Shown here: piece after piece, positions 12,023-49,348 of the stretch | Position numbering within the stretch: position 1 is the stretch's first letter | Layout: each line of letters opens with the position of its first letter | Virus record (IMG/VR): IMGVR_UViG_3300005831_000057 | Strand: one strand, 5' to 3' | Origin: a virus | Taxonomy: Duplodnaviria; Heunggongvirae; Uroviricota; Caudoviricetes | Length of the DNA: 49,348 nt | The notes under the pieces: generated by a model | Database searches by the model: none | The model's input: only the letters and a program-made list of their open reading frames with translations | What the model was told of the DNA's origin: nothing | Program-made: the position numbers and the translations under genes

Positions 12023-12041
12023 ATAAAAAGGAGGAGTGAAT

Positions 12042-19843: not shown

Positions 19844-21123
19844 CAAACGAACTATTGGATGAATATCAAATGTCTGTTCATAAAAACTTTGGCGATAACA
19901 GTTGGTTAGGAAGTGCTTCAAATTGTAGAAAAGCTATTGATTGGATAACATTTCTTAGAAGAAACATATCTACGTTTATAGAAGACGTTCTTTTAATACC
20001 TCTTCATTGGTATCAGATTATTTGGATATACGTACTAAGCACACATAAGTCAACTGCTATAGTGGCATCAAGAGCCTCGGCTAAGTCATTTATTATAGCT
20101 GTTTTTGCTTGCGCTAAATGTATATTATTTCCTAATAGTAAATTTGTAATAGCATCAGCTACGAAAAATCAAGCTGGGCTTATAGTTACTGAAAAGATAG
20201 AAAAAGAATTGATGCCAAAATCTCCTAGGCTTGCAAGAGAAATAGTAAAGATAGTCGGTAATACAAATAAGACAGAAGTAATATTTAGAAATGGGAGTAC
20301 TATTACGGTTGTTCCAGCTAGTGAAAATGCTTTAGGTATGAGGTCTACAGATCTTATATTTGAGGAGTTTAAAATTATAAAGGAATATATTGTAGATAGT
20401 GTATTAAGTCCGTTTCTAGTAAGTAGACATTGTATATTTAGAGGATTGCCACACTATGTTAATAATAAGGAATTAATAGAAGAACCAACTAAGATGTTTA
20501 TAAGTTCAAGTTTTAGAACTAGCACTTGGCAGTTTAGAATGATAAAAAATTTCATAAATACAAAGTTCGGCGATGGAACTAATTGTTTATTGGCGTGTGA
20601 TTATTCTGTTTCGCTTAAGCATGGCATAAAGACTATGGCTACACTTTTAGATGATAAAAGAAAGTTTGATCCTATTACTTGGAGAATAGAATATGAAAAT
20701 GAAGCACTCAAAGAAAATACAAGTGCTTTCTTTACGTACGATATGATATTACCAAATCAAATAAACAAACAGCTATTTTATCCTAGAAAAACCATAGACG
20801 TTCTTACTAAGAAAAGCAATCAGTTTGCTATACCTAGACAAGATAACGAGATAAGAATAATATCATGCGATATGGCATTTGTAGATAAAGATGGGAATGA
20901 CAATTCGGTGTTTAGCTGCATAAGATTGTTGCCAGAAACTATAAATTACAAAACTCATGAACAACAAAATAAAGAAATTCAAAATAACAAAGGATATAGA
21001 AGAGTGCTGTCATATTTAGAAGCTAATAGAGGTGGAGATATAGATATTCAAGCTATAAGAATAAAGCAACTATATGAAGACTTTGATGCTGACTATTGTG
21101 TACTAGATGCACGAAATGGGGGT
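19840..21123 (+). CDS. terL: Terminase large subunit, exon 1 (428 codons)
   Basis: Walker A-like ASRASAKS, Walker B LIFEEF, nuclease SCDMA; ends LDARNGG at the group I 5' splice U. Confidence 0.9.
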
Positions 21124-22241: not shown

Positions 22242-22766
22242 ATTTTAGTCTATGACAGACTTGCAAAATTCTTATATGACGAATCAAGAGATAAAGAGTA
22301 TAAGGCTTGGAAGTGTATGAACGATGCAAATACAGCCGACAGAATAAATGTAGAAGGTGCTATAGAAAATGTGTTTGTCATAAACGCAAGTCAAAGACTT
22401 AATAACGATATAGCGTTTTCGTTTAGAGAAGTGTTACAAAGTAAAAGAATAGATTTACTAGTTGATCTTAATGATATTATAGATGATATGCAAGAAAAGA
22501 TTTCTGATTATGGCAAGTGTATAGATTTGGAAACTCAAATGTTTTATGAAAGACCATTTCTTGAAACGCAAGCGTTTATAAACGAGACTACTTCTCTTGA
22601 ATATGAAAAGAAGGATCAGACTGGATTGATAGTGATATATGAAACTAACGGAAATACAAAAGATAGATATACAAGCGTGTCATATGGTAGTTATTTTGCC
22701 TCGCTATTGGAACAAGATTTGCTATCTACAAAAAACGAACACGATTTTCTAGTACTAATAAATTAA
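22242..22766 (+). CDS. terL: Terminase large subunit, exon 2
   Basis: Contains KDRYTSVSYG nuclease motif; spliced product would be 602 aa. Confidence 0.9.
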   Translation: MLVYDRLAKFLYDESRDKEYKAWKCMNDANTADRINVEGAIENVFVINASQRLNNDIAFSFREVLQSKRIDLLVDLNDIIDDMQEKISDYGKCIDLETQMFYERPFLETQAFINETTSLEYEKKDQTGLIVIYETNGNTKDRYTSVSYGSYFASLLEQDLLSTKNEHDFLVLIN

Positions 22767-24376: not shown

Positions 24377-25321
24377 ATGAACAATATTAAAGTTTCAGTA
24401 ATAATCCCAATATATAACGTAGAAAAGTATCTTGATAGATGCTTAAGCTCGGTAACAAATCAAACGCTAGAAGAAATAGAAATTATATGTGTAAACGATG
24501 GATCTACTGACTCTTGTATGGATATTATATCACGGCACTCTGACAAAGTCAATAACATTAAAGTTATTTCTAAAGAAAATACTGGATACGGAGATAGTGT
24601 TAATATTGGAATTGAAAATGCTATGGGAGAATATGTATGCATATTAGAATCGGACGATTACGCAAAAATCAATATGTGCAAAGAAATGTACGAGAAAGCT
24701 AAGTCTAATAATCTCGATATATTACGTGCTAATTATTATGCGAATGACGAAAAAATGGGTGCTATGTATCAATCTATATGTGATGTGATTGGATATGAAA
24801 ATGTATTTTGTCCTATCGATAACTTAAACATATTCTTGCTAACTCCATACGTATGGTCTTATATCTACAATCGTAAATTTATAATGGATAACAATATAAG
24901 GTTTACAAGAACTAAAGGAGCTTCGTATCAAGATGTAGCTTTTAATTTTAAATGCTTATCTTTGGCTAAACGAATGATGGTATTAGATAGGGCTTATGTT
25001 TATTATACCATAGACAATCCAAATTCTTCAATAAGATCTAAGGATAAAGTTTATTGCATATGTGATCAATATTCAGAAGTAGAGTGTTTCTTAAATAACA
25101 ATATATATTTGAAAAAATGTTTATGGGAAGTTAAAAATATAATAAAACTAAGTGCATACAAGTGGAATTATCGTAGGTTGTCGGATGAATTAAAACCTAT
25201 GTTTAGACGTATATTTGTGGCGCAGTTTATGCGTGAAATAGAAGATGGTACACTTACAAGTACTTATGTAGATGAATTATATTGGAGTGAGTTATATAGG
25301 TTTTGTGGAATAAATAAGTAA
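24377..25321 (+). CDS. Glycosyltransferase family 2
   Basis: SVIIPIYN, VNDGSTD, ILESDD and SYQD motifs. Confidence 0.92.
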   Translation: MNNIKVSVIIPIYNVEKYLDRCLSSVTNQTLEEIEIICVNDGSTDSCMDIISRHSDKVNNIKVISKENTGYGDSVNIGIENAMGEYVCILESDDYAKINMCKEMYEKAKSNNLDILRANYYANDEKMGAMYQSICDVIGYENVFCPIDNLNIFLLTPYVWSYIYNRKFIMDNNIRFTRTKGASYQDVAFNFKCLSLAKRMMVLDRAYVYYTIDNPNSSIRSKDKVYCICDQYSEVECFLNNNIYLKKCLWEVKNIIKLSAYKWNYRRLSDELKPMFRRIFVAQFMREIEDGTLTSTYVDELYWSELYRFCGINK

Positions 25322-31766: not shown

Positions 31767-32783
31767 ATGTCAGATTTGAATATGGCTAACAGACAGTGTT
31801 GTGACGTTGATATAAGGGAATATTCTACAAACAGACCTTGGGGATTCTATGACAGTGCTAACGTAACTACAGTTGGATTTACGGCTGATACAACTTTTGC
31901 GATGGAGAAAGGTGCTAAATCTATTGCTTTCGCTAATCCAATGGAAGGCACAATGACTATGGAACTACAAGTACATCCTTTCAAACTTTACTCATTATTC
32001 TCTGATGGAACAATTGGTACTTCAACAGTACTTCCTAAGAGAGAAAGAATTCAATGTGCTGTGGCTGGACAAGTTACTGCTACTGGTACTCCAGTTAGTG
32101 GAACAATGTACGTGTATGCTGATAACGATTATGCTGGAACTGCATTAGTAGGAACAGTTGCTGGTTCAGTATTTACTGCTACAACTCCAGCTCATGTTGC
32201 ATTGAACAGCTATTATGAAGTTACTTACTTAGAGGCTATTACAAGTGGAATCAAGTCTATTTCATTTGATAACACTAAGGCTCTTAAGGACTTTAGAGTA
32301 ACAATGGAAACTTTAGACAAAGACGAGAATGGCGATTTAGTACCAGTTAAGATTACGGCTTTCAAGGCTTCTCCAAAAAGAAATATGTCATTATCTTTTT
32401 CATCTGAAGGAGATCCTGCTACACTTACAATTGAATTTGATTGTTTGGTTGATAGCGATCAGAGAGTATTAGAAATGGTAGAAATTGATGACGTTGATTC
32501 AGATCAGTTTACAAAGATTTTTGCATCTCCGTCAATTATAACATTGGCTAATTCTGGAACAAGACAAATCACTACTTACGGTTTGCTTGGCGACGATTAT
32601 GTGCCAGCTTTACTAGATACTGCTGATTTAACATTTTCAGAAATCGCTGATACTTCTGGAGCGTTTACAGTTAGTTCAACTGGATTAATCACAGCTCATG
32701 GAAGTACAGATGGTTCAGGACAGATCTTAGTTACTCTTACAGGAACTTCTGTTACATGTGTAGTTCAAGTTACAGTAGCGTAA
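31767..32783 (+). CDS. Major tail protein with C-terminal Ig-like domain
   Basis: FSSEGDPATLTIEFD motif; Ig-like tail VSSTGLITA...VQVTVA; followed by a terminator. Confidence 0.8.
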   Translation: MSDLNMANRQCCDVDIREYSTNRPWGFYDSANVTTVGFTADTTFAMEKGAKSIAFANPMEGTMTMELQVHPFKLYSLFSDGTIGTSTVLPKRERIQCAVAGQVTATGTPVSGTMYVYADNDYAGTALVGTVAGSVFTATTPAHVALNSYYEVTYLEAITSGIKSISFDNTKALKDFRVTMETLDKDENGDLVPVKITAFKASPKRNMSLSFSSEGDPATLTIEFDCLVDSDQRVLEMVEIDDVDSDQFTKIFASPSIITLANSGTRQITTYGLLGDDYVPALLDTADLTFSEIADTSGAFTVSSTGLITAHGSTDGSGQILVTLTGTSVTCVVQVTVA

Positions 32784-32798
32784 TAAATATGTAACAAT

Positions 32799-32829
32799 AT
32801 GGGAAGGTTGAGATATATCTTCCCTATAA
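32799..32829 (+). terminator. Stem-loop terminator after major tail gene
   Basis: TATGGGAAGG...TCTTCCCTATA. Confidence 0.5.
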
Positions 32830-33781: not shown

Positions 33782-36748
33782 ATGATATCTACATATAGAT
33801 TGAACAATGATAAAACATTTTCAAAATCTAGCCAAAATATTAATTATGTAGGCGAAAACGATGTAGAAATATTGAGATTTGTGATACATAAAGATTATAA
33901 TGGGCTAGACATGTCAACTTCATCAGTTCTTTTGTTTGTAAATGACACAGAAGGCATATTGAGTACAAGTTATGAATTATCAAAAGAAAATACTTTGTAT
34001 TCAGATAGTTACTATGTATACAATTTTAGTATACCTAACAATTTTACTACGTCAAGTAATGTGTTAAATATATGGCTTAGCATACTTACTACTGATAATG
34101 AACTGTTAAAAACAGAGGATATTTCTCTTATTGTGATTGATAAACCTATAGGACAAGATTTAATACCATCAGAAGATATGTCAGCTTTCGAACAAATGGT
34201 AGTAGATGTTGACTATTTGTTGTCACAAGGACTTACTACAGAGAATATAGACGAAGCTGTTTTTGATTATATTGAAACACATCCTACTGAATTAGTAAAT
34301 AATACAGAATTAAGTACTATACTTGACGATTATGTAACTGAAACAGTTCTTGGAACTACATTGAATGGATATACGACTGATTCAGAATTAACTACTACAT
34401 TAGGCGACTATGTTACTGAAACTGCGCTCAGCACGACGTTAGGTGGTTACGTAGAAGAAAGTGCGTTAACAACTACTCTTGGAGATTATGTGTTGGAATC
34501 AGATTTGACAACTACTTTAAGTGGATATACGACAGATACCGAACTTGGTACTATTCTTGGAGATTATATAACCGAGACTAATCTAGGAAATACACTTGCA
34601 GATTATCCAACAGAAACAGAACTTGGTACTGTATTAGGAGATTACGTTACCGACACACAACTTTCTACTTCTTTGGGCGATTATGTGCTAGAGTCTGATT
34701 TAACTACTACATTATCTGGATATACTACTGATAGCGAATTATCAACTGTTCTTAGTGATTATGTCACAGAAACTTCATTATCTACAGAACTTGGAAATTA
34801 TCCTACCGAAACCGAGCTTGGGAATGTATTAGCTGACTACGTAACTGATACTGAATTAGGAACTGCGTTGGGCGATTATCAAACAGAAAGCGGTTTAACT
34901 ACTATACTTGCTGATTATCCTACAGAGACTGAATTAGGAACGATATTAAATGATTATGTTACAGAAACAAGCTTAGGTACGACTTTGGGCTATTACGTTA
35001 CTGACACAGAATTGGGCACAACATTGTCCGACTATGTAACCGACACGTCACTAGGAACAACGCTAGCTGATTACGTTACTGAAACCAGTCTTGGAACAAC
35101 ATTAGGAGATTATACTACGGACACAGAATTAACAAATACTTTAGCTGATTATCCAAAAAGAAGTGAGATAAGTAGTTCTGGTGGATACGAAGGAAATATA
35201 TATTTAACTGCCTCTGCGTCAATTGTAAATCCGTCATACTATGCACTTAGCTATACAAACGATTTAACTGCTACGATATCAGATATTATAGTTACAAATA
35301 CATCAGAAGTGTTAGTAAAAACTTATATTTCAGACTTGCAAATAGGAGTAACAACTATAGATTCTGGAACTTGGAAATTTACTTTTTATGTCAAACAAAC
35401 AGCTAACAACAAAGATACTAGAATGAGAGTCGTAGCGTTTAAAAGACATGCTAATGGAGTAGAAGAAAATTTATTTGAGGCATCAAGTTACAACATAGTA
35501 AATACAGATTTCGAAGTTATAAAGATGGAAATGTATCAACCGACGTTGTTAATACTAGAAACTGATAGGCTTGGATTTAGATTTTACATAAGCACAACCG
35601 CAGCTACAAATACAGTCACATGTAGTGTTGGAGATGGATATGGATGTTATGTAAATACTCCACTTTCACTACGTCATGATTTGCTAAGGGATAAGAATGG
35701 TAATTTATCTTTTCAACATGTGACTAGCGACAAAGTAGGTGTGTTATCAAAATTATCTGTAACTGACAACATAATGTATTTAGATAGTAATGTATTACGT
35801 CCAGTGCCAAACGCTCCCACTACTAATCCACAGGATTATATATTAGATGGAAGTTACTCGTTTGTTCCGAAGTCATCTATGGCGTATATAGGCGGAGGAG
35901 GAATGTATCTTACCAATGAAGATTCCACTATAGTTGTCGGTTATGATAAATTATCTTATACCAATAGCGCTGCTGTTACTGAACATGAAATAGTGGTTAA
36001 TAATAACGAGGTTTTAGGCGATATTCACTTATTTGAAAACGTGATTAATACAACTCAAATAGACTCTGGTAATTGGGCGTTTAGTATATATTGTAGAGTA
36101 AGCTCTGCTTCGGGTGTCACAAGGATAAGAGGTGAAGTTTTTGTAAGAACAAACGGTGGCACAATAGTTCCTTTGTTTAGCGTGTATAGTCAAGAAATAA
36201 ATAATTTGTCAAGCACACATATAAAAATGGAATCATATCAATCACAGTTTTCAGTAAATGCAGATGATAGATTAGGGTTTAGATTGTATGCGACCACAAC
36301 TCATAATGCAAACATATCAGTGTTTTATACAGAAGGTGGTGTAAATTCTTCATATATAGTAACACCGTTGCATTTAAGACATAGCCAACTTAGGGCACTT
36401 AACGAAGATGTTAATTATCAGCACATTAACGCAACAGATAGGAATGTATTAGATAAATATCCAGCAGAAGTTATAGATTGGGGTACAACATATACTGCTA
36501 CGATTTTGCCAAATAAATTTAATTTGTGGGGAACTTTGACAAACGCAAATACGTTAGCCATAACGTTAGGCTCGACTACTAGTGGAATAGTAAATCAATA
36601 TATGTTTGAGTTTAAAACTGGTGCGTCAGTCCCAGCGTTTTCTGCAATTAGTGGAGTTACATGGATAGGATCTAATCCTACTTTGCAAATAAATAAAACA
36701 TATCAGTTTTCAATCATAAATGGAATTGGAGCGTGGGCTTATGCTTAA
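33782..36748 (+). CDS. Long virion fibre protein: BppU-like N-terminus, 13-aa repeat shaft, two copies of a beta domain, C-terminal tip domain
   Basis: 988 aa; repeats and internal duplication visible in the translation. Confidence 0.75.
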   Translation: MISTYRLNNDKTFSKSSQNINYVGENDVEILRFVIHKDYNGLDMSTSSVLLFVNDTEGILSTSYELSKENTLYSDSYYVYNFSIPNNFTTSSNVLNIWLSILTTDNELLKTEDISLIVIDKPIGQDLIPSEDMSAFEQMVVDVDYLLSQGLTTENIDEAVFDYIETHPTELVNNTELSTILDDYVTETVLGTTLNGYTTDSELTTTLGDYVTETALSTTLGGYVEESALTTTLGDYVLESDLTTTLSGYTTDTELGTILGDYITETNLGNTLADYPTETELGTVLGDYVTDTQLSTSLGDYVLESDLTTTLSGYTTDSELSTVLSDYVTETSLSTELGNYPTETELGNVLADYVTDTELGTALGDYQTESGLTTILADYPTETELGTILNDYVTETSLGTTLGYYVTDTELGTTLSDYVTDTSLGTTLADYVTETSLGTTLGDYTTDTELTNTLADYPKRSEISSSGGYEGNIYLTASASIVNPSYYALSYTNDLTATISDIIVTNTSEVLVKTYISDLQIGVTTIDSGTWKFTFYVKQTANNKDTRMRVVAFKRHANGVEENLFEASSYNIVNTDFEVIKMEMYQPTLLILETDRLGFRFYISTTAATNTVTCSVGDGYGCYVNTPLSLRHDLLRDKNGNLSFQHVTSDKVGVLSKLSVTDNIMYLDSNVLRPVPNAPTTNPQDYILDGSYSFVPKSSMAYIGGGGMYLTNEDSTIVVGYDKLSYTNSAAVTEHEIVVNNNEVLGDIHLFENVINTTQIDSGNWAFSIYCRVSSASGVTRIRGEVFVRTNGGTIVPLFSVYSQEINNLSSTHIKMESYQSQFSVNADDRLGFRLYATTTHNANISVFYTEGGVNSSYIVTPLHLRHSQLRALNEDVNYQHINATDRNVLDKYPAEVIDWGTTYTATILPNKFNLWGTLTNANTLAITLGSTTSGIVNQYMFEFKTGASVPAFSAISGVTWIGSNPTLQINKTYQFSIINGIGAWAYA
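34322..35155 (+). repeat. Coding tandem repeat, 39 nt / 13 aa unit (LxDYxTxTxLxTT), 21 full copies plus one partial
   Basis: Counted in the translation; 21 x 39 nt spans 34322-35140 exactly. Confidence 0.9.
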
Positions 36749-37442
36749 CCGACACATAATGCTTTCTAAGCCAAAATTTGATGCCAATACTTCATTATTA
36801 TTGCATTGCAATGGATCAAATAATTCGACTAATATAGTTGACGAAGCTGGGAAGATTGTAAATATAGGAGGAAGTGCTATTCTATCTACTACTCAATACA
36901 AGTTTGGCGGTGCATCATTAAAACTAAATGGTACAACAGACTATATTTATATTGACGATAGTGAAGATTTTAGCTTTGGCAGTGGAGACTTTACGATTGA
37001 TTTTTGGGTATATTTTAATAGTTTATCAACTACGACTGGTTTATTTGCACAGAGAAATGCTTATAACGCAAATCTGTCTGTGTATTCATATATAAATCCA
37101 TCTGATAAGAAAATATATTTTTACTATAGTATAAATGGAACTGCAAATGTGGGAGGGGTTTTCAATACTGTGCTTGCTACTGGGCAATGGTATCATGTTG
37201 CTATAGTTAGGAATAGTACTGAAATTGCATGTTATATAAATGGAAATAAAGAAACTACGACATTAAATATATCTACGTCTTCTATATATAATAGTACTAG
37301 ACCATTTTCTGTTGGAGCTATGTATGCGTCTACTACGTTTGCATCATTTACTAACGGGTATTTTGACGAGTTTAGGATATCCAAAGGGATTGCTAGATGG
37401 ACGAGTAATTTTACGCCAAAATCCGCAGAATATTACGAATGA
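36741..37442 (+). CDS. LamG/concanavalin-A-like lectin domain protein (copy 1)
   Basis: LLLHCNG...FTIDFW...WYHVAIVR...GYFDEFRISKGIARW; ATG overlaps the fibre stop codon. Confidence 0.85.
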   Translation: MLNRHIMLSKPKFDANTSLLLHCNGSNNSTNIVDEAGKIVNIGGSAILSTTQYKFGGASLKLNGTTDYIYIDDSEDFSFGSGDFTIDFWVYFNSLSTTTGLFAQRNAYNANLSVYSYINPSDKKIYFYYSINGTANVGGVFNTVLATGQWYHVAIVRNSTEIACYINGNKETTTLNISTSSIYNSTRPFSVGAMYASTTFASFTNGYFDEFRISKGIARWTSNFTPKSAEYYE

Positions 37443-37503
37443 TAATTTGATTATATAGTGTAATAAATTATATTACATGTTACAAGAAAGGAGTGATTTT
37501 TTA

Positions 37504-40500
37504 ATGGCAAGTGATAACATTGCTAGAGGTCTTGCGATAAAAGGGCTTTTAGATGCTAAGAGTTACGTGGACGAGAAAATAGAGTTAGTTGCTCAAGGAG
37601 CTTTTGTTCATATTAAATATGCAAGCAGCGAACCTACACAAGATAGCGATATAAGCGATACCCCTAATTCTTGGATGGGAATTGCAAGTACATCCAATCC
37701 TACAGCTCCTACTAGTTATTCAGCATATGAATGGAATTTAATTAGAGGTAATGGAGTATCTTCAATTGATTTAATAAATACACAAGGTTTAGTTAAAACG
37801 TATAGAATTAGTTATGATGATGGGTTGTATGAAGATTTTAATGTAACAGATGGCGCTCAAGGTATTCAAGGTATTCAAGGGCTTAAAGGCGATAAAGGAG
37901 ACACTGGTGCAACTGGTCTTACTGGAGCGCAAGGAATTCAAGGATTGCAAGGTATTCAAGGACTTAAAGGTGACAAGGGAGATACTGGTTCTGCTGGTGC
38001 TCAGGGCGCTCAGGGTATTCAAGGCGTAAAAGGCGATACTGGTGCAACTGGAGCTGCTGGTGCAACTGGGGCGCAAGGCATACAAGGTATAAAAGGTGAT
38101 ACTGGTTCTCAAGGAGTTCAAGGTATTCAAGGTTTGCAAGGAATCCAAGGCGAAAAAGGAGATACTGGTTCTCAAGGTATACAAGGACTTCAAGGTGAAC
38201 AAGGTATTCAAGGTGAGAAGGGTGATACTGGAATACTTACTACATCTAAAGATTTCGAGTATACCGATGATAATTTAACCTTGGCAGATAGAGATAAACT
38301 ACAAAATAAGTTGAATGATTATAATTTCAAGTCTATGTATACACAGTGGAATGTGGCTTATTCATATGACGTATTACAAGTTAAAGTAAATGAAAATTAT
38401 ACAACACTTACATCTTCTGCAACTACAAATAAACAAGCTTGGAAAGGTGTAAATATTGCTAATGGTCATACATATTTCTGCTTGCTAAATTGTAGAGTAA
38501 ACGATAGTGGAGCTGGAACTTTTAAAGTAAAACTTAATCTTCAAGCGTCACCATATACAGAATATGCGTACGAGTATATTGCTATTTCTGAAAGTTTTGC
38601 GAATTATGGATTTACATATACTAATGAAACTGGAACTGATAACTATTGTCAATTTAGTTTGCAAGATGCTAGTACTCATGCATTAGATGTAGATTTAGCG
38701 TATGCTGTGATTTTAGACATAACTGGAACAGATTTGATTAATATGAGCAGAACAGATGTTATAAATAGTTACATTAACAATATTGACGTGTTTAAAGATA
38801 ATTATATTTACTTCGACATTAAGAAAAAGTTGGAATATTTATACGACGCTCCATATACAGAAGAGTGGAATAGAATGAATACTTCAAGATATACTAAAAA
38901 CTTTTTACGCACACAAGGAACTAGAATTGTAGATGCTTATGGAACTGAATATTTTATCAAGGGTATAAATGTTGGTAATGATTGTACTAATGTTAACAGT
39001 ATAGCTGGTTCTGATTTGATAGTTTCTACTGATGGATATCCAGAGGATCATGACGAAGACTCATACAGAGAGTTGGCTGAGTTAGGATTTAATTGTATGA
39101 GATTTCAATTCGCATATACATTTTTTGAAGGAGCTAACAATAGAGTAATAGATCCTACATATCAAGGACTGCCATCACAATACCAAGATGGAGTATGGGA
39201 ATGGTTAGACAGAGAAATAGCTATGGCTAGAAAATATAACATAAAGTTGCTATTTAATATGCATGTATATTGCGGACAAGGCGGATGGGAAATTGCTACT
39301 AACGAAATATGGACTACTTTATCTAGCAGGCAAAGACTTATAAATATGTGGAAGGCAATCGCTCGTAGATATGCAAACGAAGATGTTGTATTGGGCTATG
39401 GACTAATCAACGAGCCAGTTATAACCTTCCAAACAGACAATGCTACGACTATCGGAGTTTACCAAACTCTTGTAAATGATTTATGTACAGAAATTAGAAA
39501 AGTAGATACCAATCACATACTTGTAGTAGAAAATGCACTAAGGGCGTCAAATGGAACTACTGCGTTAAACTCTAACAACAACTTTGTTGAAGTTTTAAAC
39601 AATGGTGTAACTGACACTAATTATCTATACGAGGCTCATATATATCAAAATATGGCGATTACTCATGAAATGTCAGCGTCAAAACATCCATCAATAAACT
39701 ATCCTAACGAGTTTGCAGTGTTTAATTATGGAGGAACATATGATTGGATTGCCAACAACTCTGTATATGTAAGCATCCCAGTAGGAACAGCTGATCAAAC
39801 TGCTTGGACTGATTATATAACGCCGATAGTAACACCTAATGCATTGACTAAGTTGATATATCCTTGGATAAGAGTTCGTGATGCTAATGGTGGTGAAATT
39901 CTTCAAATGTGCGACTATAAAATAAATGTATATGATTCAAGTGATAATTTTATCGAAAGTATATTTGTGGACGATGGACAACATGGAGCTATATTTTCTG
40001 GAGGAGGTCTTGGAACAATGACAAACCCTCAGTTGCCATCTGCTATCGGTACTGGATATATGCAGTTAGTTGCTAATGCGTTAAGTGGGTACGCTACTAC
40101 AGTTTCAATGTCTAGTGTGCCAGTTTCTACAAGATATAGAATACCAACTGGATTAAAGTATAGCATAAGTGCAAAATATAGAGTGAGCAATATTGCTAGT
40201 TCTGGAGTTGCTTTCAGATTTTATATTGGATGTGACGAAATTAATAGTGCTTGCTGTGCTGATACAGAAGAAAGATTTAAATACAACATAGCATTGTATA
40301 AAGCTTCTGCTGATGCTAAAAACGTTCCGATTCATATTGGAGAGTTCGGTGTTAATTATTTATCATTTCTTACATACGAACGTGGTGGAGAATTGTGGGT
40401 TAGAGATGCCTTGAAGGTTCTTAGAGATAATTTAATCAGTTATAGTTACTTTTCATATTGTGGTGCTACTTTTTCATTATACCCAAATATTAAAAGATTC

Positions 40501-40599
40501 GATGCTAGACAAAGAAAATTATATGATGCAATAATAGGACATTTCAAAGATATACCTCACGAATCGATAGATACAATAATAGAAAAAGCATTTATGTAG
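37504..40599 (+). CDS. Collagen-repeat fibre protein with C-terminal GH5 glycoside hydrolase
   Basis: HIKY...YSAYEW virion-anchor-type motif; Gly-X-Y run; GH5 motifs GIN, FNCMR, NMH, INEP (acid/base), HIY and IGEFG (nucleophile). Confidence 0.85.
37852..38232 (+). repeat. Collagen-like Gly-X-Y repeat
   Basis: [19 protein letters not shown]... repeats. Confidence 0.9.
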
Positions 40600-40614
40600 A
40601 AAGGAGGAAGCAAA

Positions 40615-41487
40615 ATGAATAAAATGGATGAAATAATTGCAAGAATAGTTACTAAGTTGAAGGCGTTTAATGACGCTACGTCTCATTCGGTTCAAACAAG
40701 ACCGACATATCTATCAAACACGGCAGATGCGGTAATTAGTGGATATAAGACTTTGTCAAAATCTAACGATTCTTCGCTTACTACAATTACAACTACTGTA
40801 AAGCAAACGGATGGAGAAAAACTTTTATATGCGTTTTTAATGCCATCAAACATGGGAGTGACTACTATAGATGCTGGCACTTGGACTTTCGATTTGTGTT
40901 GTGGTATTAGTTCTAATATGGCTACAACAAAATACAGATATGTAGTATTTAGACGTGATACTGGCGGAACTGAAACTACACTTTTTAGTGTATATTCAAA
41001 TCCTATATCAAATGTTACTGCAAATGGATTAAGAATGTTAAAAACAAGAAGTACGCAACCTCCTTTTACAGTGACTGCTACAGATAGGATTGGAGTAAAA
41101 GTTTATGTTTTAACAAACAGCCAATCAACATTAACATTGTCTGTCGGAGTCGGAGGAACTGCCACTACTAGTTATATAAGCACGACTTTACCATTGGATA
41201 TAGTTGATGTCGTAGATTGGGGCACAACATATACTGCCACGATAGCTCCTAATAAGTTTAATAAATGGGGAACATTGACCAGTGCGAATACATTAGCTAT
41301 AACTTTAGGCGTAGAGAATAGTGCTGTGATGAACAACTTTGTATTCGAGTTTAAGACTGGTGCAAGTGTACCGACGTTTAGTCCTATTAGTGGTGTTACT
41401 TGGTCTGGTTCTAATCCTACTTTAGCTATAAACAAAACGTACCATTTCTCGATAGTTAACGGAATTGGGGTGTGGTGTTATGCTTAA
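40615..41487 (+). CDS. Short fibre protein, paralog of the C-terminal part of 33782-36748
   Basis: One copy of the beta domain (GVTTIDAGTW...DRIG) plus a closely similar tip domain. Confidence 0.8.
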   Translation: MNKMDEIIARIVTKLKAFNDATSHSVQTRPTYLSNTADAVISGYKTLSKSNDSSLTTITTTVKQTDGEKLLYAFLMPSNMGVTTIDAGTWTFDLCCGISSNMATTKYRYVVFRRDTGGTETTLFSVYSNPISNVTANGLRMLKTRSTQPPFTVTATDRIGVKVYVLTNSQSTLTLSVGVGGTATTSYISTTLPLDIVDVVDWGTTYTATIAPNKFNKWGTLTSANTLAITLGVENSAVMNNFVFEFKTGASVPTFSPISGVTWSGSNPTLAINKTYHFSIVNGIGVWCYA

Positions 41488-42193
41488 TGCTTTTAGAAGA
41501 AGCTTAATGTCTAAACCAAAATATGATACCACTTACGATGTACTATTTACTAACTTAAATGGTTCAAATGCGTCTACTGTATTCGTTGACGAAACTGGAA
41601 AAACTATTACAAGAGGTGGAGAAGCTTTTCTCGATAAGGATATATATAAATATGGTGGAGCGTCTTTGAAATTAAACGGATCTACCGATTATATATCTCT
41701 AGCTGATACAGACGACTTCAACTTTGGTAATGGGGATTTTACTATCGAATATTGGGTGTATTTTAACGTATTTCATGCAACTAACGCTAACGGAATGATA
41801 TCTCAAAGAACTACAAGTGGTACTAATGTGGCTTTTTATAACTACATAGCACAAGCAGACAAGAAGATGTATTTCTACTACTCTGTCACTGGTACAGCTA
41901 CAATAGGCGGAGCATTTAATACTGTATTTCAAACTGGTCAATGGTATCACGTTGCTATAGTTAGAAATGGAACTGAAATTGCTATGTATTTAGACGGAGT
42001 TAAAGAATCTAACACAATAAATGTATCGACCGATACTTTTTTTGATAGTACAACAACAATGACTATAGGTTGTATGAAAACCGCTGCTAGTACATATTCT
42101 CATTATACTAATGGATATTTTGATCAGATAAGGATAAGCAAAGGAATAGCAAGGTATACGAGTAATTTTACACCAACAGAAATAACGTATTAG
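41480..42193 (+). CDS. LamG/concanavalin-A-like lectin domain protein (copy 2)
   Basis: Closely similar to copy 1 (KYGGASLKLNG.TDYI, WYHVAIVRN, RISKGIARY); same ATG/TAA overlap. Confidence 0.85.
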   Translation: MLNAFRRSLMSKPKYDTTYDVLFTNLNGSNASTVFVDETGKTITRGGEAFLDKDIYKYGGASLKLNGSTDYISLADTDDFNFGNGDFTIEYWVYFNVFHATNANGMISQRTTSGTNVAFYNYIAQADKKMYFYYSVTGTATIGGAFNTVFQTGQWYHVAIVRNGTEIAMYLDGVKESNTINVSTDTFFDSTTTMTIGCMKTAASTYSHYTNGYFDQIRISKGIARYTSNFTPTEITY

Positions 42194-42230
42194 AAATATC
42201 CCTAGTGGTAGAAATATTGCTAGGGAATTT
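42190..42230 (+). terminator. Possible terminator hairpin before the second GH5 gene
   Basis: CCCTAGT...GCTAGGG followed by AATTTT. Confidence 0.4.
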
Positions 42231-42252
42231 TACTATATAGAAAGGAGAAAAT

Positions 42253-43797
42253 ATGTTACCTACAACTTATACATCTGCATCTAACTTAGTTAGTAACATA
42301 AAAGTTGGATGGAATTTAGGAAATACTTTCGAAAGCGGAAGTACTACAGTTCCTTATGAAGTAGATATATACAAAAAATCATCATATAAAACTTGGTTAT
42401 ATTTAGTAGATAGTTATAGTGGGTTTCAAATAATAGGAAGTTCTTCTCAGTCAGTATCATCTGCTGGATTGGCGAATATTTCAACTACAATAACATCGAT
42501 AGACGTAAATGAAAGAACGAGAACTCCATTAAGGTTTAGTATAAGACTTGCAAATTACGCAATCGGTAGCTGTGGAACTAATGAAATAAAGTTTACAATT
42601 TCTAACTTTGTTATAACCAGAGCTGATTCGGTGGTTATTCCAATAAATGAAATGAACGCTAGTTTTACTGGCACAATTTCAACTGGAGGAGTAGTTTCCG
42701 TAGAAGTTCCAGTGTTGAATTTTAGTGCTTATGGACTTGGAACTTTGGCTAATTTTGTTAACGCTACAGTTACATATACATTGCAAATCACGCAATGGTT
42801 AGTGCCTACAAACCCGATAAGTAAAGAAGATTGGACTGAAAGATATTATGGAAATCCAGTAACTACAAAAGCTATGCTACAAAAAGTAAAAGATAAAGGT
42901 TTTAATGCAATCAGAGTTCCTATAACATGGATATCACATTGGAATAATGCCAATAATACATTCGATACAGAATGGCTAAGAAGAATTAAACAAATTGTTG
43001 ATTGGGCGTTTGAAATAGATCTGATAGTTCTTATAAATATTCATCATGATGGTCAGTCTTCTTGGTGGATTAAAGCTTATTTAGACACATACAATAAAGA
43101 TATAGTAAAGGCTAGATTATCAATGTATTGGAATAGAATAGCTTATATGTTTAAGGATTATGATCACAGACTTGTGTTTGAGGGAATGAATGAAATTTTA
43201 GATAGTAGTGGATCTTGGTCTGCGCCTACGCTTGATGAACAAACGTCTTTAAATGAGTTATATCAAGTATTCTTAAACTCGGTGAGAGCAACTGGTTATA
43301 AAAATGCAGATAGAATATTATCTATAAATACATATGGAGCTGCTACGAACTATAATTATATACAAATGCCTACTGATTCGGTTGCTAATAGACTTCTGGT
43401 TCAAGTTCATTATTACAGTCCACAAGATTTTTGTTGGTATACTGGAAGTGGTAGTGGAAATACTGCTATGGTTAATTATGACGCAGTTACGCATGGAGCT
43501 TTATTAGACGGCTTATTTAATGACTTAAAAGTTAAATTTATAGATAATGGAATCCCAGTAATAATCGGAGAGTTTGCTTCGTATTCTAAAAATAACACAG
43601 CAGAACGAGTTGAACATGCTACTGCATATATATCAAAGACTAAAGCTATTGGAATTAAATGTTTTTGGTGGGATGTTGGTGGCGATGGAACTAGAACTGA
43701 ATCTCAAATAACAAGTGGAGCTTTGCTTAACAGACACAATCTTACTTGGTGGTTCGAGTCTATTCCTAATGCTTTGGTCGCTGCTGCGAATAGTTAA
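42253..43797 (+). CDS. GH5 glycoside hydrolase (endoglucanase-like, resembling subfamily 4) with an inserted domain
   Basis: GWNLGNT, GFNAIRVP.TW, IN.HH, FEGMNE (acid/base), HYY and PVIIGEF (nucleophile). Confidence 0.9.
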   Translation: MLPTTYTSASNLVSNIKVGWNLGNTFESGSTTVPYEVDIYKKSSYKTWLYLVDSYSGFQIIGSSSQSVSSAGLANISTTITSIDVNERTRTPLRFSIRLANYAIGSCGTNEIKFTISNFVITRADSVVIPINEMNASFTGTISTGGVVSVEVPVLNFSAYGLGTLANFVNATVTYTLQITQWLVPTNPISKEDWTERYYGNPVTTKAMLQKVKDKGFNAIRVPITWISHWNNANNTFDTEWLRRIKQIVDWAFEIDLIVLINIHHDGQSSWWIKAYLDTYNKDIVKARLSMYWNRIAYMFKDYDHRLVFEGMNEILDSSGSWSAPTLDEQTSLNELYQVFLNSVRATGYKNADRILSINTYGAATNYNYIQMPTDSVANRLLVQVHYYSPQDFCWYTGSGSGNTAMVNYDAVTHGALLDGLFNDLKVKFIDNGIPVIIGEFASYSKNNTAERVEHATAYISKTKAIGIKCFWWDVGGDGTRTESQITSGALLNRHNLTWWFESIPNALVAAANS

Positions 43798-43806: not shown

Positions 43807-44262
43807 ATGCCTAAAAGAGAAAGTAAATTTAATATAAGTAAAGACAAATCTAAAAGAACATACAATGGAATAGTTTTTGATAGTGTAATAGAAATGCTAT
43901 TTTATATAGACTACATAGTTCCAAGATTAGAAAGTGGAGAAATTTTAAGTGTGAATAGGCAAGCAGAGTATGAGTTGCAACCTAGGTTTGTGCATAACAA
44001 TAAAAATTGTAGCGCCATAAAATACATCTCGGATTTCGATGTAACATATAGCGACGGAAAGATTGTAGTTATTGATATAAAAGGTATGGTTAAGCCTATG
44101 GATTCTATAAAAAGAAAGATGTTTAATTACAGATATCCAGATATAGATTTAAGATGGATTAATTTTTCTAAACTAGATGGAGGATGGGTTAGTCTTGACG
44201 TTATAAAAGAAGGAAGAAGTAAGCGCAAGAAAATAAGAGAAGATAAAATAGCTAAAAAGTAG
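43807..44262 (+). CDS. DUF1064-like PD-(D/E)xK endonuclease
   Basis: FDS..E...Y...YELQP...YISDF...IDIKG. Confidence 0.75.
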   Translation: MPKRESKFNISKDKSKRTYNGIVFDSVIEMLFYIDYIVPRLESGEILSVNRQAEYELQPRFVHNNKNCSAIKYISDFDVTYSDGKIVVIDIKGMVKPMDSIKRKMFNYRYPDIDLRWINFSKLDGGWVSLDVIKEGRSKRKKIREDKIAKK

Positions 44263-45806: not shown

Positions 45807-45836
45807 AGTTTTGCTATGAAAAGAGGTGATATTTAT

Positions 45837-46870
45837 ATGGATGAACAATTAAAGATTTTGCTTGGGGTTGCTTTTGATACTGCTCAAGCTAAAATACAAG
45901 TAAATGCTTTGACTGAAAGATTAAAAAAAGATGCAAAACTAAAGCTTGGAATAGATTTATCAGATAAAGATGCTAATAAAATTGTAGATAAATATCTTAA
46001 AGATACGCAACGTAAGCAAGAGTCTATGATTAGTTATGTTACCAACAAAAAATTGTCAGACATTAGAAAAGTGGAACAAGCAGAAAAACAATCTATAGAG
46101 AGTAGAAAAAGAAGTAATATATCTGCTATAGATTTGGAAATAAAAAAGCGTGAAGAAGCAAGTAAAAGATTTTCGTCTCAATTAAAAGAGCAAATAGTTC
46201 AGTCTCAAAAGGATTCGGAATCCGCTCTTAGTATGACTAGCAAAAAGGATAAAGCCTTTTCTTCTATAGATTCGTATATGAATAGCAACACTAAACTTAC
46301 AAGAGCGTCGAGGAATGAGTTTGAAGGGTTGAGAAGGCAAATTGCTTTAACTGGAGACGGTAAAGAATTGTCTAGGCTTACAAGCAAGATATCAATACTG
46401 AAAGATAAGACTAAGTCACTCGGTCAAGTTGGTAAGAGTTCTTTTGACGAAATGAAGAATAATCTTGGGAAAATGGCAACATGGTTAGTAGCTGGAACTG
46501 TTATATTCGGAAGTCAGCAAGCGATACAAAGTATGGTTGATAATGTATTCGAACTTGACAAAGCTATGATTGAGCTTAAGAAGGTAACAGATGAAACAAG
46601 CAAAAGCTATAATAGTTTTACAGATAATGCATTTGATACCGCAAAGAGACTTGGAACTGGAGTTGCTACATTTGTAAATCAAACTGCTGAATGGGCAAAA
46701 GCTGGATATAACCTCAAAGAAGCTGCTAAGTTGGCTGAATCAAGTACTGTATTCCAAAACGTAGCAAATATAGACAGCTCTGAATCTGTAGGAGTTATGA
46801 TTTCAGCTATGAAGGCTTTTAATATAGAGTCTGAAAAATCTATAGATATTGTGGACAAATTAAATGAGGT
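45837..46870 (+). CDS. Tail tape measure protein, exon 1
   Basis: ELDKAMIELKKVTD...WAKAGY...IVDKLNEV pattern of the tape-measure minor tail domain. Confidence 0.9.
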
Positions 46871-48358
46871 AAACGCAAACTGCCTCCTCGTATAGTAATA
46901 TATGTAGAAAAAGCTAGCTCAAATAAGGGGAACTCCAGAGATGGACAATCCTTAGGGTAAGAACTGTAATGATAATGTCGATGTACTTTGGGGGTACAAA
47001 AAATAAAAATGGAGATATGTAATATTGAATGATAATTTAGATATAAAATATTCATACTGTATTAAGTGTGATAAGACAATGGATATAAATGTGTTTTATA
47101 CTAACAAACAAAATATAAAAAACAGTTATACTAAATGTAGAATATGTACTTGGAAAAATAATAATAAGGGATATAACATAAAAGGGTGGAATAGTGTAGA
47201 TATAGATGATTTTATATATTTTATATTTAAAAATGATATGTGCATTTTAAATAACTTTATAAAAACGCATACCCATATATCTCTTCGTGACGCAGTAAAT
47301 GGGTTCTCTGAATTAGCCATTGGTAACAGAAAGACAAGAGTATTTTGTAAATGCGATAGTTGCGGGTGTAATATATTAAAAAAGCCATATTTATATAATG
47401 ACTTATTTAATTATTGTTCTAATAAATGCTATCATGACAATAAAATAAAAACGTCCAAAAGAGGCTCTGAGTGTTATAATTATAATAGTATTAATTCTAA
47501 GTGTTGCAATTGTAATAAAGATATAGTAGTTAAAAAATATAATTATGACAAACTTAATTCTTTTGGAGATAGAAATAATTTCTGTTCACACAAGTGTTAT
47601 TATAAATATAGGTCTAAATATTATATAGGTATTAAAAACCATAATTATGGACGAAAACTAAGCGAAGAAGCTAAAAACAAACTTAGAATCAACATGATCA
47701 ATGGCGGAAGACTTGCAAGTAGACTTAATAGTAAAATACAATTAAAAGTAAACAGTATACTTGATGATAATAACATAAGATATATAAGAGAGTATGTTAT
47801 TAAGTATTATGCAGTAGATAATTACTTAGTAGATAGTAGACTTATAATAGAGGTTATGGGAGATTATTGGCACTCAAATATTAATATTTACAATAACGAT
47901 GGATATAATATAAATAAAATGCAACAAAAGGGTATCATAAAAGATAAGGCTAAAAATACTTATATAAATAATTATATAGGGACAAATATACTTTATCTAT
48001 GGGAACGAGATGTAAATAAAAATATAGAGTTATGTAAACTTTTAATACTTGAGTATATAAAAAATAATGGAGTATTAGATGATTACAACTCATTTAATTA
48101 TAGTATATACAACAAAGAATTATGTATAAATAAAAACATAATAAAACCATATCATGAATATCGACAAAACGAACAAACCCAAATGTTCGAATCATTACTA
48201 AATCCCTCAACGACCACAGCTATATAGGCGACTATGTAGCGTATGCTAGCCTCATAATAATGATGAAGGTATGGTCTGGACTGCAAATATAATCTAAAAA
48301 TAAAATTGCAGAGATAAGCAGAAATGACTTATCCCCTTGAAAAAGGAGTAACAAAACG
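46871..48358 (+). mobile_element. Group I intron 1 in the tape measure gene
   Basis: P1 GAGGU/GCCUC; P3 GCUAGC; P4/P5 AAAUAAGGGGAA...GACAAUCCUUAG; P7 GACCA/UGGUC; P9 hairpins; terminal G. Splicing gives ...KLNEV-DNLFSV... Confidence 0.9.
47025..48227 (+). CDS. Intron-encoded homing endonuclease (Zn-binding repeats, NUMOD3, Vsr/DUF559-like EDxHD nuclease domain)
   Basis: CS.KCY repeats, NYGRKLSEEAK.KLR, IEVMGDYWH...KDKAK...LYLWE. Confidence 0.8.
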   Translation: MNDNLDIKYSYCIKCDKTMDINVFYTNKQNIKNSYTKCRICTWKNNNKGYNIKGWNSVDIDDFIYFIFKNDMCILNNFIKTHTHISLRDAVNGFSELAIGNRKTRVFCKCDSCGCNILKKPYLYNDLFNYCSNKCYHDNKIKTSKRGSECYNYNSINSKCCNCNKDIVVKKYNYDKLNSFGDRNNFCSHKCYYKYRSKYYIGIKNHNYGRKLSEEAKNKLRINMINGGRLASRLNSKIQLKVNSILDDNNIRYIREYVIKYYAVDNYLVDSRLIIEVMGDYWHSNINIYNNDGYNINKMQQKGIIKDKAKNTYINNYIGTNILYLWERDVNKNIELCKLLILEYIKNNGVLDDYNSFNYSIYNKELCINKNIIKPYHEYRQNEQTQMFESLLNPSTTTAI

Positions 48359-48545
48359 TGATAATTTGTTCTCGGTAAATGCATCTGGAATTGGACAAGG
48401 TTTACAAGTATCGGCTTCTGCTATGGCTATGGCTGGAAACGATATAAATAAAACGATAGCGCTCTTAACTGGTGGTTCTGAACTAACTCAAGCGCCAGTG
48501 GAAATGGGCAACGCAATAAAAATTTTATCTTTAAGGCTTCGAGGT
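48359..48545 (+). CDS. Tail tape measure protein, exon 2 (187 nt)
   Basis: DNLFSV...SASAM..AGN...TIALLT...MGNAIK.LSLRLRG continues the tape-measure motif in frame. Confidence 0.88.
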
Positions 48546-49348
48546 AAACACTACATGCCTCCATATCACGAAAGCGATATGCTATGTGCCTAACATAGAT
48601 AACAACTATATAAGTTAAAGCTCTGGGAAGAGTAAGACTTAGGAAAGACTTATAATATTATAATTCCATATAATAAATAAATTAATAAAATATGATAAGA
48701 GAAGATTACAATAAAGTACTTGAAGAATTTGGACTAATTCCTATAACAAATTGTACTAGCACGTCATGCAAAACTGCGTGCATAAATAAAAATGGACTTA
48801 CCGTAATTGCATGTATTGACAAAGTTAGAAATTCAAACAAAACTCCAAAAGAAATACATGTATGCAATCCATATACTATTGATAACATAAATAAGCTTAT
48901 ATTGCGAAACATATCTGATGAATATAAATGCGTATCAGATACGTACACAGACAATAAAACACTTTTAGATATATTACATATTAAATGTGGGACTTTATTT
49001 AAAATATCTTGGACTAATATTCAAAAAAGAGTAAGCAGAAATGGTTGTGGAGAATTGATATCATGTAATAAGTGTAACACAAAAAGAACAGAGTCAATGC
49101 ACGCATTGGTTTTAAAACAAGTAATGTTAAAGGAATTATGTGGTACTGTGGTAGAAGATACATCTTGTATTAACCCTTTGACTGGGAAATGCCTTCCTAC
49201 GGATATAGTTAATCATAATTTAAAAATATCAATAGAAATACAAAGCTGGTTTCATGAAAGACCAGAGCAAAAGATAAAAGATGTTATAAAGAAAGATTAT
49301 TGGATAAATAACGGATACGAGTTTATAGAGATAGACCATAGAGATGTA
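48546..49348 (+). mobile_element. Group I intron 2 in the tape measure gene (5' part; runs off window)
   Basis: P1 GAGGU/GCCUC and a P2 hairpin as in intron 1; tape-measure similarity stops at GGT 48545; a nuclease ORF follows. The 3' core is not visible. Confidence 0.75.
48692..49348 (+). CDS. Intron-encoded Vsr/DUF559-like homing endonuclease (partial)
   Basis: Manually translated, open to the window end: H..CG..F...W...C.KC...IEIQSWFH...KD..KKDYW..NGY.FIEIDHR. Confidence 0.75.
   Translation, partial: MIREDYNKVLEEFGLIPITNCTSTSCKTACINKNGLTVIACIDKVRNSNKTPKEIHVCNPYTIDNINKLILRNISDEYKCVSDTYTDNKTLLDILHIKCGTLFKISWTNIQKRVSRNGCGELISCNKCNTKRTESMHALVLKQVMLKELCGTVVEDTSCINPLTGKCLPTDIVNHNLKISIEIQSWFHERPEQKIKDVIKKDYWINNGYEFIEIDHRDV

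Follow-up and report, generated by a model that had tools for sequence, protein, structure and literature searches.

What might a phage do with two fibres, two lectin-like proteins and two cellulase-family enzymes encoded in one row? The question is raised by IMGVR_UViG_3300005831_000057, a Caudoviricetes record of 49,348 nucleotides (the window, by which we mean the whole stretch of DNA analysed). Six of its genes, on the + strand between positions 33782 and 43797, form a cassette with the order fibre, laminin G-like (LamG) protein and glycoside hydrolase family 5 (GH5) protein twice over (Table 1). A preliminary description had recorded this order and proposed a modular virion appendage whose fibre tip docks both a lectin and an exchangeable hydrolase. 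The genes are all there, with the amendment that the first GH5 gene, encoding 1040 amino acids (aa), is itself a fibre gene. The proposal holds in part: tip conservation, 46 pairs of fibre and partner, and a complex prediction support docking of the lectin on the tip, but the hydrolase as a third docked, exchangeable subunit is not supported in the form proposed.

The reading that we favour, with slightly better than even confidence, is that the region encodes an arsenal of receptor-binding fibres, with lectins plugged into fibre tips and GH5 domains that cut glycan to give the tail access. It would comprise two assemblies. In assembly A, fibre 1, consisting of an anchor, a repeat stalk, two jelly-rolls and the tip, would carry LamG1. 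In assembly B, the GH5 fibre would be joined by the short fibre 2 and LamG2, with a free GH5 enzyme of subfamily 4 (GH5_4) encoded just 3'. Each tip domain would form a trimeric socket, the first ~14 residues of the downstream, translationally coupled LamG protein would insert along the trimer axis in a predicted 3:1 complex, and one lectin would cap each fibre as its distal adhesin. The lectins may bind a beta-glucan-type polysaccharide, and GH5 domains on a neighbouring or the same appendage would cut the lectin-held glycan so that the tail reaches the cell surface. We infer the presence of these proteins in the virion, the glycan target, and the attachment of fibre 2 to the GH5 fibre and of GH5_4. 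As for the target, GH5_4, its xyloglucanase-like relatives and a polysaccharide deacetylase found in one related locus (below) fit both host capsule or exopolysaccharide and plant glucan.

A broader proposal, to which we give a little less than an even chance, is that gut phages share a socket-and-plug system with exchangeable heads at a fixed junction, the window representing the last tier of a three-tier branched appendage. A trimeric tip of ~95 aa would accept a ~12-residue peptide of the MSNFRRRLMMS type from the adhesin encoded next, and unrelated heads (the LamG lectin, a glycine-rich domain, C-type-lectin-like domains and several unknown folds) would swap by recombination at that junction. 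As to the tiers, the C-terminal helical tail of the collagen-containing GH5 fibre would hold the short fibre, which has no anchor, and this in turn would bear the lectin.

A constant fibre tip and its partner peptide

The likeness of the two halves of the cassette, noticed beforehand, was borne out at the protein level. The last 96 residues of the two fibres, the shared tip, are 74% identical; fibre 2 aligns to residues 709-988 of fibre 1 (45% identity, E value 5e-70); the LamG proteins are paralogous (55% identical, E value 4e-89); and both fibre stops overlap the LamG start as TATGCTTAA, a junction that two related metagenomic loci show with a TAA or TAG stop. The DNA copies are just 72-73% identical over 282 and 90 nucleotides (nt), and a recent tandem duplication was rejected on that ground; judged by this divergence, the two copies are old. 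Fibre 1 and LamG1 have the look of an additional copy with an anchor of its own.

The tip is the most conserved segment of the fibres, at 68-85% identity versus 35-73% for the preceding jelly-roll and 53-66% for LamG. Tip searches returned 35 loci in IMG/VR and 32 in metagenome contigs, 30-42% identical and many labelled human gut, where the tip terminates proteins of 119-748 aa, often with collagen repeats. Pooling gave 63 pairs of fibre and partner, 46 of them distinct. Every tip falls in one cluster, and the partner bodies (after residue 15) fall into at least nine unrelated ones, a few of which have a recognised domain: LamG in the window, Gly_rich_2, and weak Lcl_C and FGE-like matches. 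What the partners share lies at their N-terminus, with the consensus M-S-N/S-F-R-R-R-L-M-M-S (the plug). In 31 of the 46 distinct pairs the partner gene begins 7 nt short of the end of its fibre gene, in an 8-nt ATGnnTAR overlap. One could suppose that the plug is conserved merely through this overlap. We rejected this, as the overlap is 8 nt long and F-R-R-R-L-M lies downstream of the fibre stop with synonymous differences; the Arg and Leu codons vary synonymously between loci, and the constraint therefore acts on the protein. That the tip and the short handle stay constant while the bodies vary would fit an attachment handle and not a dedicated chaperone.

The joint thus delineated recurs in many uncultured gut phages with unrelated heads. 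Profile searches of the tip found no relative in Pfam, PHROG or among solved structures. Fibre 2 as a query found none in 50,697 cultured-phage records by tblastn and none in IMG/VR by a single-protein pattern query; tip relatives were recovered with tip alignments only, an 8-sequence tip alignment being too diverse for pattern search. A partner of the L014 type likewise had no tblastn match among the cultured-phage records. The tip profile was unmatched in 401 + 401 genomes from the orders around a Ruminococcus and a Lachnospiraceae metagenome-assembled genome (MAG), a search with no positive control and hence uninformative. The plug-and-socket joint seems to be undescribed.

A complex prediction bears on the same point. 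Three copies of the fibre 2 tip (residues 190-290) were modelled with LamG2, using our own alignments and three controls. The tip trimer with LamG2 scored 0.86, 0.62 and 0.82 (median 0.82; best control 0.42), where the score is the model's own confidence and the calibration, given our alignments and a three-copy chain, is only rough. In the tool's calibration this mark is reached by 58 of 80 solved complexes and by 2 of 110 mismatched pairs. At least 82% of contacts are common to the runs, and the predicted local distance difference test (pLDDT) value of the partner is at least 91. Residues 1-14 of LamG2 contact the same residues of all three tips (197, 213, 215, 239-243, 264-266, 277-281 and 285-288), and the peptide therefore lies on the three-fold axis of the model, the lectin body leaning on one subunit. 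The prediction supports binding of the tip trimer to LamG2 through the plug peptide, and its interface agrees with the comparative plug/tip result, which was obtained independently of the model.

The small proteins themselves are well defined. Pfam Laminin_G_3 scores 77.7 bits for LamG1 and 68.1 bits for LamG2 against a gathering cut-off of 27.6, which assigns both to the LamG or concanavalin A-like fold, and the PHROG matches of LamG are to domains inside baseplate and virion proteins. The N-termini of LamG2 (MLNAFRRSLMS) and of the LamG protein of a related locus, L004 (MLNFRRGLMY), are recognisable plugs. Other phages (loci L005-L010, around 7642-8771 of each) encode more distant stand-alone LamG proteins, 34-38% identical, which are placed towards the end of series of large genes, some of them with tail-fibre Pfam families. 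A 117-119-aa gene lies 5' of each, its stop overlapping the LamG start. The N-termini of these LamG proteins differ from the plug of the window and the 46-pair set, and LamG adhesins may on this account use several docking modes.

Upstream of their tips the fibres differ in how they could be held. Residues 1-123 of fibre 1 resemble BppU_N in the ESM Atlas (feature score 0.95, 217 of 256 features shared, template modelling (TM) score 0.69-0.78 to BppU_N-bearing clusters), which we treat as a lead towards a BppU_N-like anchor. Fibre 2 has no recognisable virion anchor. Short fibres of this kind (290-320 aa) lack an anchor domain and, in the set examined here, always stand directly 3' of a GH5 fibre, which suggests that they hang on the GH5 fibre, whose end is a phage-specific helical tail. 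Among these fibres the N-terminal parts vary between phages and the C-terminal parts are common to them.

The jelly-roll domain of the fibres (~190 aa; motifs GSGGYAANVYLT ... TPL.LRH.QLR; window 35165-36457 and 40696-41196; proteins P0079-P0225) belongs to a family of 2,936 representative proteins at E values up to 1e-3, in many architectures, and has no Pfam, PHROG or solved-structure relative by sequence. In the fibre 2 monomer model, usable for this domain only (domain pLDDT about 70-89), its predicted fold resembles CocE/PepX_C and TNF-type jelly rolls.

The two GH5 proteins

The two hydrolases had been described as very different types that both keep their catalytic glutamates, and so they proved to be: BLASTP between the 1040-aa and 514-aa proteins gives an E value of 0.013, and the glutamates are E646/E956 in the former and E314/E440 in the latter. 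By its architecture the 1040-aa protein is a collagen-containing fibre with a terminal GH5 domain and not a free enzyme; tandem DNA repeats (37857-38231) lie within the collagen-like stretch. Pfam Cellulase (PF00150) gave no hit to the whole protein at E values up to 0.01 or to its C-terminal 590 aa at E values up to 10, because an insertion of ~200 aa splits the GH5 domain. Its homologues P0074, P0075 and P0077 carry precomputed PF00150. As a single sequence, the C-terminal 590 residues match solved GH5 endoglucanases (8b3y at 2e-11, CelC at 9e-10), and a 5-sequence profile matches Clostridium thermocellum CelC (GH5) at 1.7e-31, the alignment falling into two pieces and taking in the NEP and GEFG motifs; the CelC motifs aligned with these hold its catalytic glutamates. 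The clan GH-A residues R542, H596, N645-E646, H721, Y723, E956 and W974 are invariant in five homologues, and, with the sequence similarity, they place the protein in GH5. The homologue P0077, a bacterial GH5 protein of 586 aa with a lipoprotein-type signal peptide (29% identity), shares the unusual ~200-aa insertion, which lies between strands 6 and 7. An enzyme of the phage type therefore also exists in a bacterium, where it lacks the C-terminal helical tail.

The 514-aa protein aligns to solved GH5_4 enzymes at 2e-61 to 1e-50, in two pieces flanking an insertion. The matches include 6xsu ("GH5-4 broad specificity endoglucanase", 2e-57), 6q1i, 6wqp and 6mq4 (~1e-61) and the xyloglucanase 4w84 (7e-50), the last four typed as endoglucanases, cellulases or xyloglucanases by title. 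Its closest characterised relatives and both catalytic glutamates place it with GH5 subfamily 4. Eighty bacterial homologues, ~40% identical, come mostly from Ruminococcus, Clostridium, Oscillospiraceae and Lachnospiraceae MAGs of herbivore guts, and nearly all of them match residues ~196-510 only, without the Ig-like insertion. Two, L121 and L128, are listed as spanning residues 6-476 and are possible exceptions.

Could either enzyme be docked on a fibre tip, as had been proposed? Three observations speak against it. First, one of the two, the 1040-aa protein, is a fibre in its own right and brings an N-terminal domain and a collagen stalk along. Second, neither enzyme begins with a plug peptide. 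Third, a terminator-like hairpin lies between the LamG2 and GH5_4 genes. Only 2 such terminator-like sites occur in 16 kb, fewer than in shuffles, and what supports this one is its position right behind a stop codon, not the count.

Close relatives of the cassette are very few, and they shift the boundaries of the proposed unit. A 51-kb phage with an SPP1-type portal (L002/L013) has a GH5 fibre (61% identical from residue 233), a 320-aa tip fibre, LamG and then the portal gene. Two fragments of one sample, L012 and L004, whose overlapping ends are 91-98% identical, give the order minor-capsid-type gene, GH5 fibre (1269 aa), tip fibre (69% identical to fibre 2), LamG and GH5_4, the last sharing the insertion of the window enzyme. 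A looser version appears in L011, with terminase, a 468-aa gene, GH5 fibre (39% identical), a 562-aa protein and LamG. L161, a strain variant from the sample that also gave L012, keeps the same GH5 fibre (97% over its end); behind it stands a fibre whose N-terminal helix and jelly-roll are likewise retained (87%) but in which (L161:726-2531) an in-frame C-terminal polysaccharide deacetylase of carbohydrate esterase family 4 replaces tip and LamG. This is a case of natural distal-module swapping, typical of receptor-binding proteins and host-range determinants. The three genes thus do recur together in a handful of metagenomic phages, and the outcome named beforehand as a refutation, homologues whose gene order is not conserved, did not come about. 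The repeat of fibre, LamG and GH5 is, though, off by one gene: from the order in L002, L012 with L004, L011 and L161, the recurring unit is, as far as gene order tells, GH5 fibre, short fibre and distal module, sometimes with GH5_4 behind.

An alternative account of the hydrolases, above all of GH5_4, is that they are auxiliary metabolic or lysis-released enzymes, which, set free at burst, would break down plant beta-glucan or xyloglucan to the benefit of the host population or open up the matrix for the progeny. GH5_4 gives this some ground, with neither fibre, anchor nor plug and a hairpin separating it from LamG2; its nearest cellular relatives are the ~40% identical cellulases of herbivore-gut fibre degraders, and GH5 and GH9 genes of rumen viruses are reported to be functional auxiliary metabolic genes (Yan et al. 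2023, PMC10465536). Like those genes, the present ones are phage-borne, lie among viral genes and encode relatives of enzymes from gut fibre degraders. They differ in their setting: in one case fibre and GH5 form a single protein, and both enzymes are encoded within a cassette of fibres and adhesins. The 1040-aa protein, whose GH5 domain continues in frame from a fibre N-terminus and a collagen stalk, does not qualify as the product of an auxiliary metabolic gene. Both enzymes lack a signal peptide. GH5_4 carries a phage-specific Ig-like insertion, missing in nearly all of its bacterial homologues (with the two possible exceptions named above), and it is kept beside the fibre/LamG pair in L004.

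Moreover, a virion-associated GH5 cellulase is on record: gp095 of Erwinia phage S6, for which bacterial cellulose is the first receptor (PMC9544554). It resembles the GH5 fibre in being encoded in the structural region, in having at its C-terminus a GH5 domain with both catalytic glutamates and, if the present reading holds, in a glycan that serves as both receptor and substrate. S6 differs in being an N4-like podophage of a Gram-negative plant pathogen, and gp095 in having choice-of-anchor D domains, no collagen stalk and no partnered lectin; the barrel of the window GH5 fibre, for its part, carries the ~200-aa insertion. The fusion and the placement in the cassette therefore favour an infection-related role over host metabolism, and we regard the metabolic or lysis-released account as rather unlikely.

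Genomic setting and the remaining alternatives

The window has a G+C content of ~30% and nearly all of its genes on the + strand. It encodes a YonO-type single-subunit RNA polymerase (12036-14750; 44-47% identical to its counterparts in SPbeta, phi3T and a Clostridium botulinum phage), together with a large terminase and a portal, the latter 50% identical to that of MT835469, an unannotated 176-kb phage from human faeces that is the nearest relative of the window phage; the cluster tables give a 113-kb contig for the window's proteins. To judge from the homologies of RNA polymerase, terminase, portal and tape measure to SPbeta-like phages, the window phage is an SPbeta-like siphophage, and its host is probably a low-GC gut bacterium.

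The SPbeta order of terminase, portal, yomV-like gene and tape measure (yomI) is kept by the window proteins. In SPbeta the interval from yomU to yomI holds yomS-yomR-yomQ-yomP, XkdV/W/X-like fibre genes, and the cassette therefore occupies the fibre slot of the lineage. MT835469 has small genes only in the corresponding slot, from which it follows that the content of the slot is exchangeable. The parallel with yomS-yomP is one of position, the same slot from a yomU-like gene to the tape measure in a related phage; it differs in content, SPbeta having neither LamG nor GH5 there, and tblastn at an E value of 1e-3 found no similarity between the cassette proteins and the yomU-yomI interval. The occupation of this slot by SPbeta fibre genes also led us to reject, for the window, an insertion of the cassette as a head-module "moron". 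Such an insertion is possible for L002 and L011.

Several neighbouring features deserve mention in their own right. The large terminase gene is split into open reading frames (ORFs) 19840-21246 and 22239-22766 (window 19840-22766), separated by an HNH homing-endonuclease gene (21291-22181); it is one continuous gene in MT835469 and SPbeta (yonF), and Rfam gave no intron model in the split region at E values up to 0.01. Two glycosyltransferase-like genes (17710-18675 and 24377-25321; PHROG galactosyl transferase, GtrB-like) lie in the head-morphogenesis region, one of them directly 3' of the portal gene, and their products may glycosylate the virion or the host surface. Directly 3' of the cassette and before the tape-measure region is a gene for a DUF1064 or Holliday-junction-resolvase-like nuclease (43807-44262), which may mark a recombination-prone boundary; the counterpart interval of SPbeta has an integrase-like gene, yomM. 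Finally, tape-measure similarity is confined to a 359-aa ORF, followed by further ORFs at 47025-48227, 48324-48593 and 48692-end (window 45816-49348). The SPbeta tape measure spans ~6.9 kb, and the window gene may be split or interrupted.

Two further alternatives concern the lectins and the fibres. According to the first, the LamG proteins are fibre-assembly chaperones of the T4 gp38 or Mu/P2 Tfa type, which would bind the folding tip and be absent from, or irrelevant in, the finished virion. Their genes are placed as chaperone genes are, directly 3' of the fibre gene and with translational coupling, and the predicted interface on the trimer axis would also be open to a trimerisation helper. 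But a chaperone should be conserved, and here the tip is conserved whereas the partner bodies, LamG, glycine-rich, Lcl_C-like and FGE-like among them, belong to at least nine unrelated families. Moreover, LamG is a carbohydrate-binding fold found inside virion and baseplate proteins in PHROGs, and the shared part is just a short N-terminal peptide, which suggests an attachment handle. We consider a chaperone role very unlikely.

The second, which we hold to be quite improbable, has the fibres tether the virion, in the manner of mucus adherence, to plant-fibre particles or gut glycans in places that hosts inhabit, host recognition being left to a baseplate encoded beyond the tape measure; it can draw on the lectin and cellulase-family content, the herbivore-gut affinities of the enzyme, the head-proximal cassettes of other phages, the collagen-like SPP1 gp12, a capsid binder, and the presence of BppU_N-type anchors in proteins that the Atlas names neck passage structure, but this slot holds tail-fibre-like genes in SPbeta, the tip fibre of most of the 46 pairs ends a run of large genes followed by small ones, a distal-tail-like arrangement as far as gene order goes, and distal-module swapping, as in L161, is typical of host-range determinants.

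We therefore return to the receptor-binding fibre arsenal, against which, besides the rough calibration of the complex score, a number of observations have to be weighed. The anchor of fibre 1 has no hit to Pfam BppU_N (PF10651), even at E values up to 10. The plugs of LamG1 (MLNRHIML..) and of the L002 LamG protein (MLRRHMML..) have diverged and lack the F-R-R-R core. The monomer model of the fibre 2 tip is poor (pLDDT 43-60). An AlphaFold2 model of residues 259-1040 of the GH5 fibre has alternating strands and helices with a mean pLDDT of 49, too weak to confirm a barrel. GH5_4 stands behind its hairpin with neither fibre part nor plug. Finally, the cassettes of other phages stand close to portal or minor-capsid genes and not in a tail module, and attachment to the tail may therefore not hold generally.

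Table 1. Features of the fibre cassette and of the edges of its genomic slot (positions in the window)
Feature	Position	Strand	Basis or remark
Virion structural protein, yomU position	31767..32783	+	phrog_2729; synteny with SPbeta and MT835469; upstream edge of fibre slot
Terminator-like hairpin	32801-32824		3' of yomU-position gene
Fibre 1, 988 aa	33782..36748	+	ORF; own hidden Markov models (HMMs) for jelly-roll and tip domains
Fibre 1 BppU_N-like anchor (lead), residues 1-123	33782-34150		ESM Atlas features and predicted structure
Fibre 1 stalk, residues ~175-465, ~22 copies of a 13-residue Thr/Asp/Tyr-rich repeat	34304-35176		Read from translation
Fibre 1 jelly-roll domains, residues 462-660 and 707-892	35165-35761 and 35900-36457		Own HMM
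Fibre 1 tip (putative socket), residues 893-988	36458-36745		Own HMM
LamG1, 233 aa	36741..37442	+	Pfam Laminin_G_3 1.3e-21; ATG overlaps fibre 1 stop (ATGCTTAA)
LamG1 putative plug peptide, residues 1-14	36741-36782		Junction alignment; N-terminal peptide comparison
GH5 fibre, 1040 aa	37477..40599	+	N-terminal domain residues 1-125; PHROG tail-fibre families
GH5 fibre collagen-like G-X-Y run, residues 126-254, 43 triplets	37852-38238		Pfam Collagen 6.5e-20
GH5 fibre conserved beta-rich domain, residues 259-455	38251-38841
GH5 fibre catalytic domain, about residues 470-1015	38884-40521
GH5 fibre acid/base E646 (LINEP)	39412-39414
GH5 fibre beta-rich barrel insertion, ~200 aa, residues 745-945	39709-40311		Between strands 6 and 7
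GH5 fibre nucleophile E956 (GEFG)	40342-40344
GH5 fibre C-terminal helical tail			Phage-specific
Fibre 2, 290 aa	40615..41487	+	ORF; N-terminal helix residues 4-22
Fibre 2 jelly-roll domain, about residues 28-194	40696-41196
Fibre 2 tip (putative socket), residues 195-290	41197-41484
LamG2, 237 aa	41480..42193	+	Pfam Laminin_G_3 1.2e-18; ATG overlaps fibre 2 stop (ATGCTTAA)
LamG2 plug peptide MLNAFRRSLMSKPK, residues 1-14	41480-41521		Meets all three tip copies in predicted complex
Terminator-like hairpin, 12-bp stem and T-rich tail	42199..42226	+	Between LamG2 and GH5_4 gene
GH5_4-type endoglucanase, 514 aa	42253..43797	+	Pfam Cellulase 9.2e-50
GH5_4 Ig-like insertion, residues 37-185, after first barrel strand	42361-42807		Atlas fold TM 0.70; phage-specific
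GH5_4 acid/base E314 (MNE)	43192-43194
GH5_4 nucleophile E440 (GEF)	43570-43572
Tape-measure-like gene	45816..46895	+	PHROG tape-measure families 6e-43; tblastn to yomI 1e-21; downstream edge of fibre slot

Known fibre-adhesin systems and significance

The closest parallel to the tip/LamG pair is the long tail fibre of T2, T6 and S16, in which the gp37 trimer is capped by a separately encoded adhesin, gp38 (Trojet et al. 2011, PMC3157838). As there, the adhesin gene stands directly 3' of the fibre gene; gp38 binds the fibre tip through a conserved N-terminal part and owes its specificity to a variable part, and the partners here likewise join a conserved N-terminal peptide to variable bodies. 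Here too a single adhesin is predicted on a trimeric tip, and one distant partner has Pfam Gly_rich_2. The differences are that the handle here is a peptide of ~12 residues and not a domain, that the bodies have unrelated folds and not one glycine-rich scaffold, and that the phages are siphophage-like and apparently infect low-GC gut bacteria. Scans of Pfam and PHROGs with the window fibres, the tip and seven distant fibre or partner proteins found no gp37/gp38-type family; LamG aside, collagen repeats and three weak or unrelated Pfam domains were the sole hits. On this comparison the tip/LamG pair is an analogue of gp37/gp38 and not a member of that family.

In the baseplate of the lactococcal phages TP901-1 and Tuc2009, BppU, which bears the Pfam domain BppU_N (PF10651), holds the separately encoded receptor-binding protein BppL. 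If the lead on its anchor is right, fibre 1 opens with a domain of this type, and in both systems a scaffold would carry a separate receptor-binding protein by the latter's N-terminus. Here, though, the scaffold is a long fibre with a C-terminal socket, and the partner is predicted as a single copy on the three-fold axis and not as a trimer.

The cassette bears on two broader matters. First, phage glycoside hydrolases are often counted as "auxiliary metabolic genes" of carbon turnover. With one GH5 plainly part of a fibre and the second travelling with a fibre/lectin pair, at least some such genes would be infection equipment. Second, the receptor-binding proteins of phages of gut anaerobes are mostly unannotated, which blocks both host prediction and rational retargeting. 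The widespread plug-and-socket junction is for this reason the part of the finding worth pursuing. If it is as proposed, a simple sequence rule, that the gene after the tip beginning with an MSNFRRRLM-type peptide encodes the adhesin, could be used on metagenomic phages, and the junction itself would be a natural place for the exchange of binding heads.

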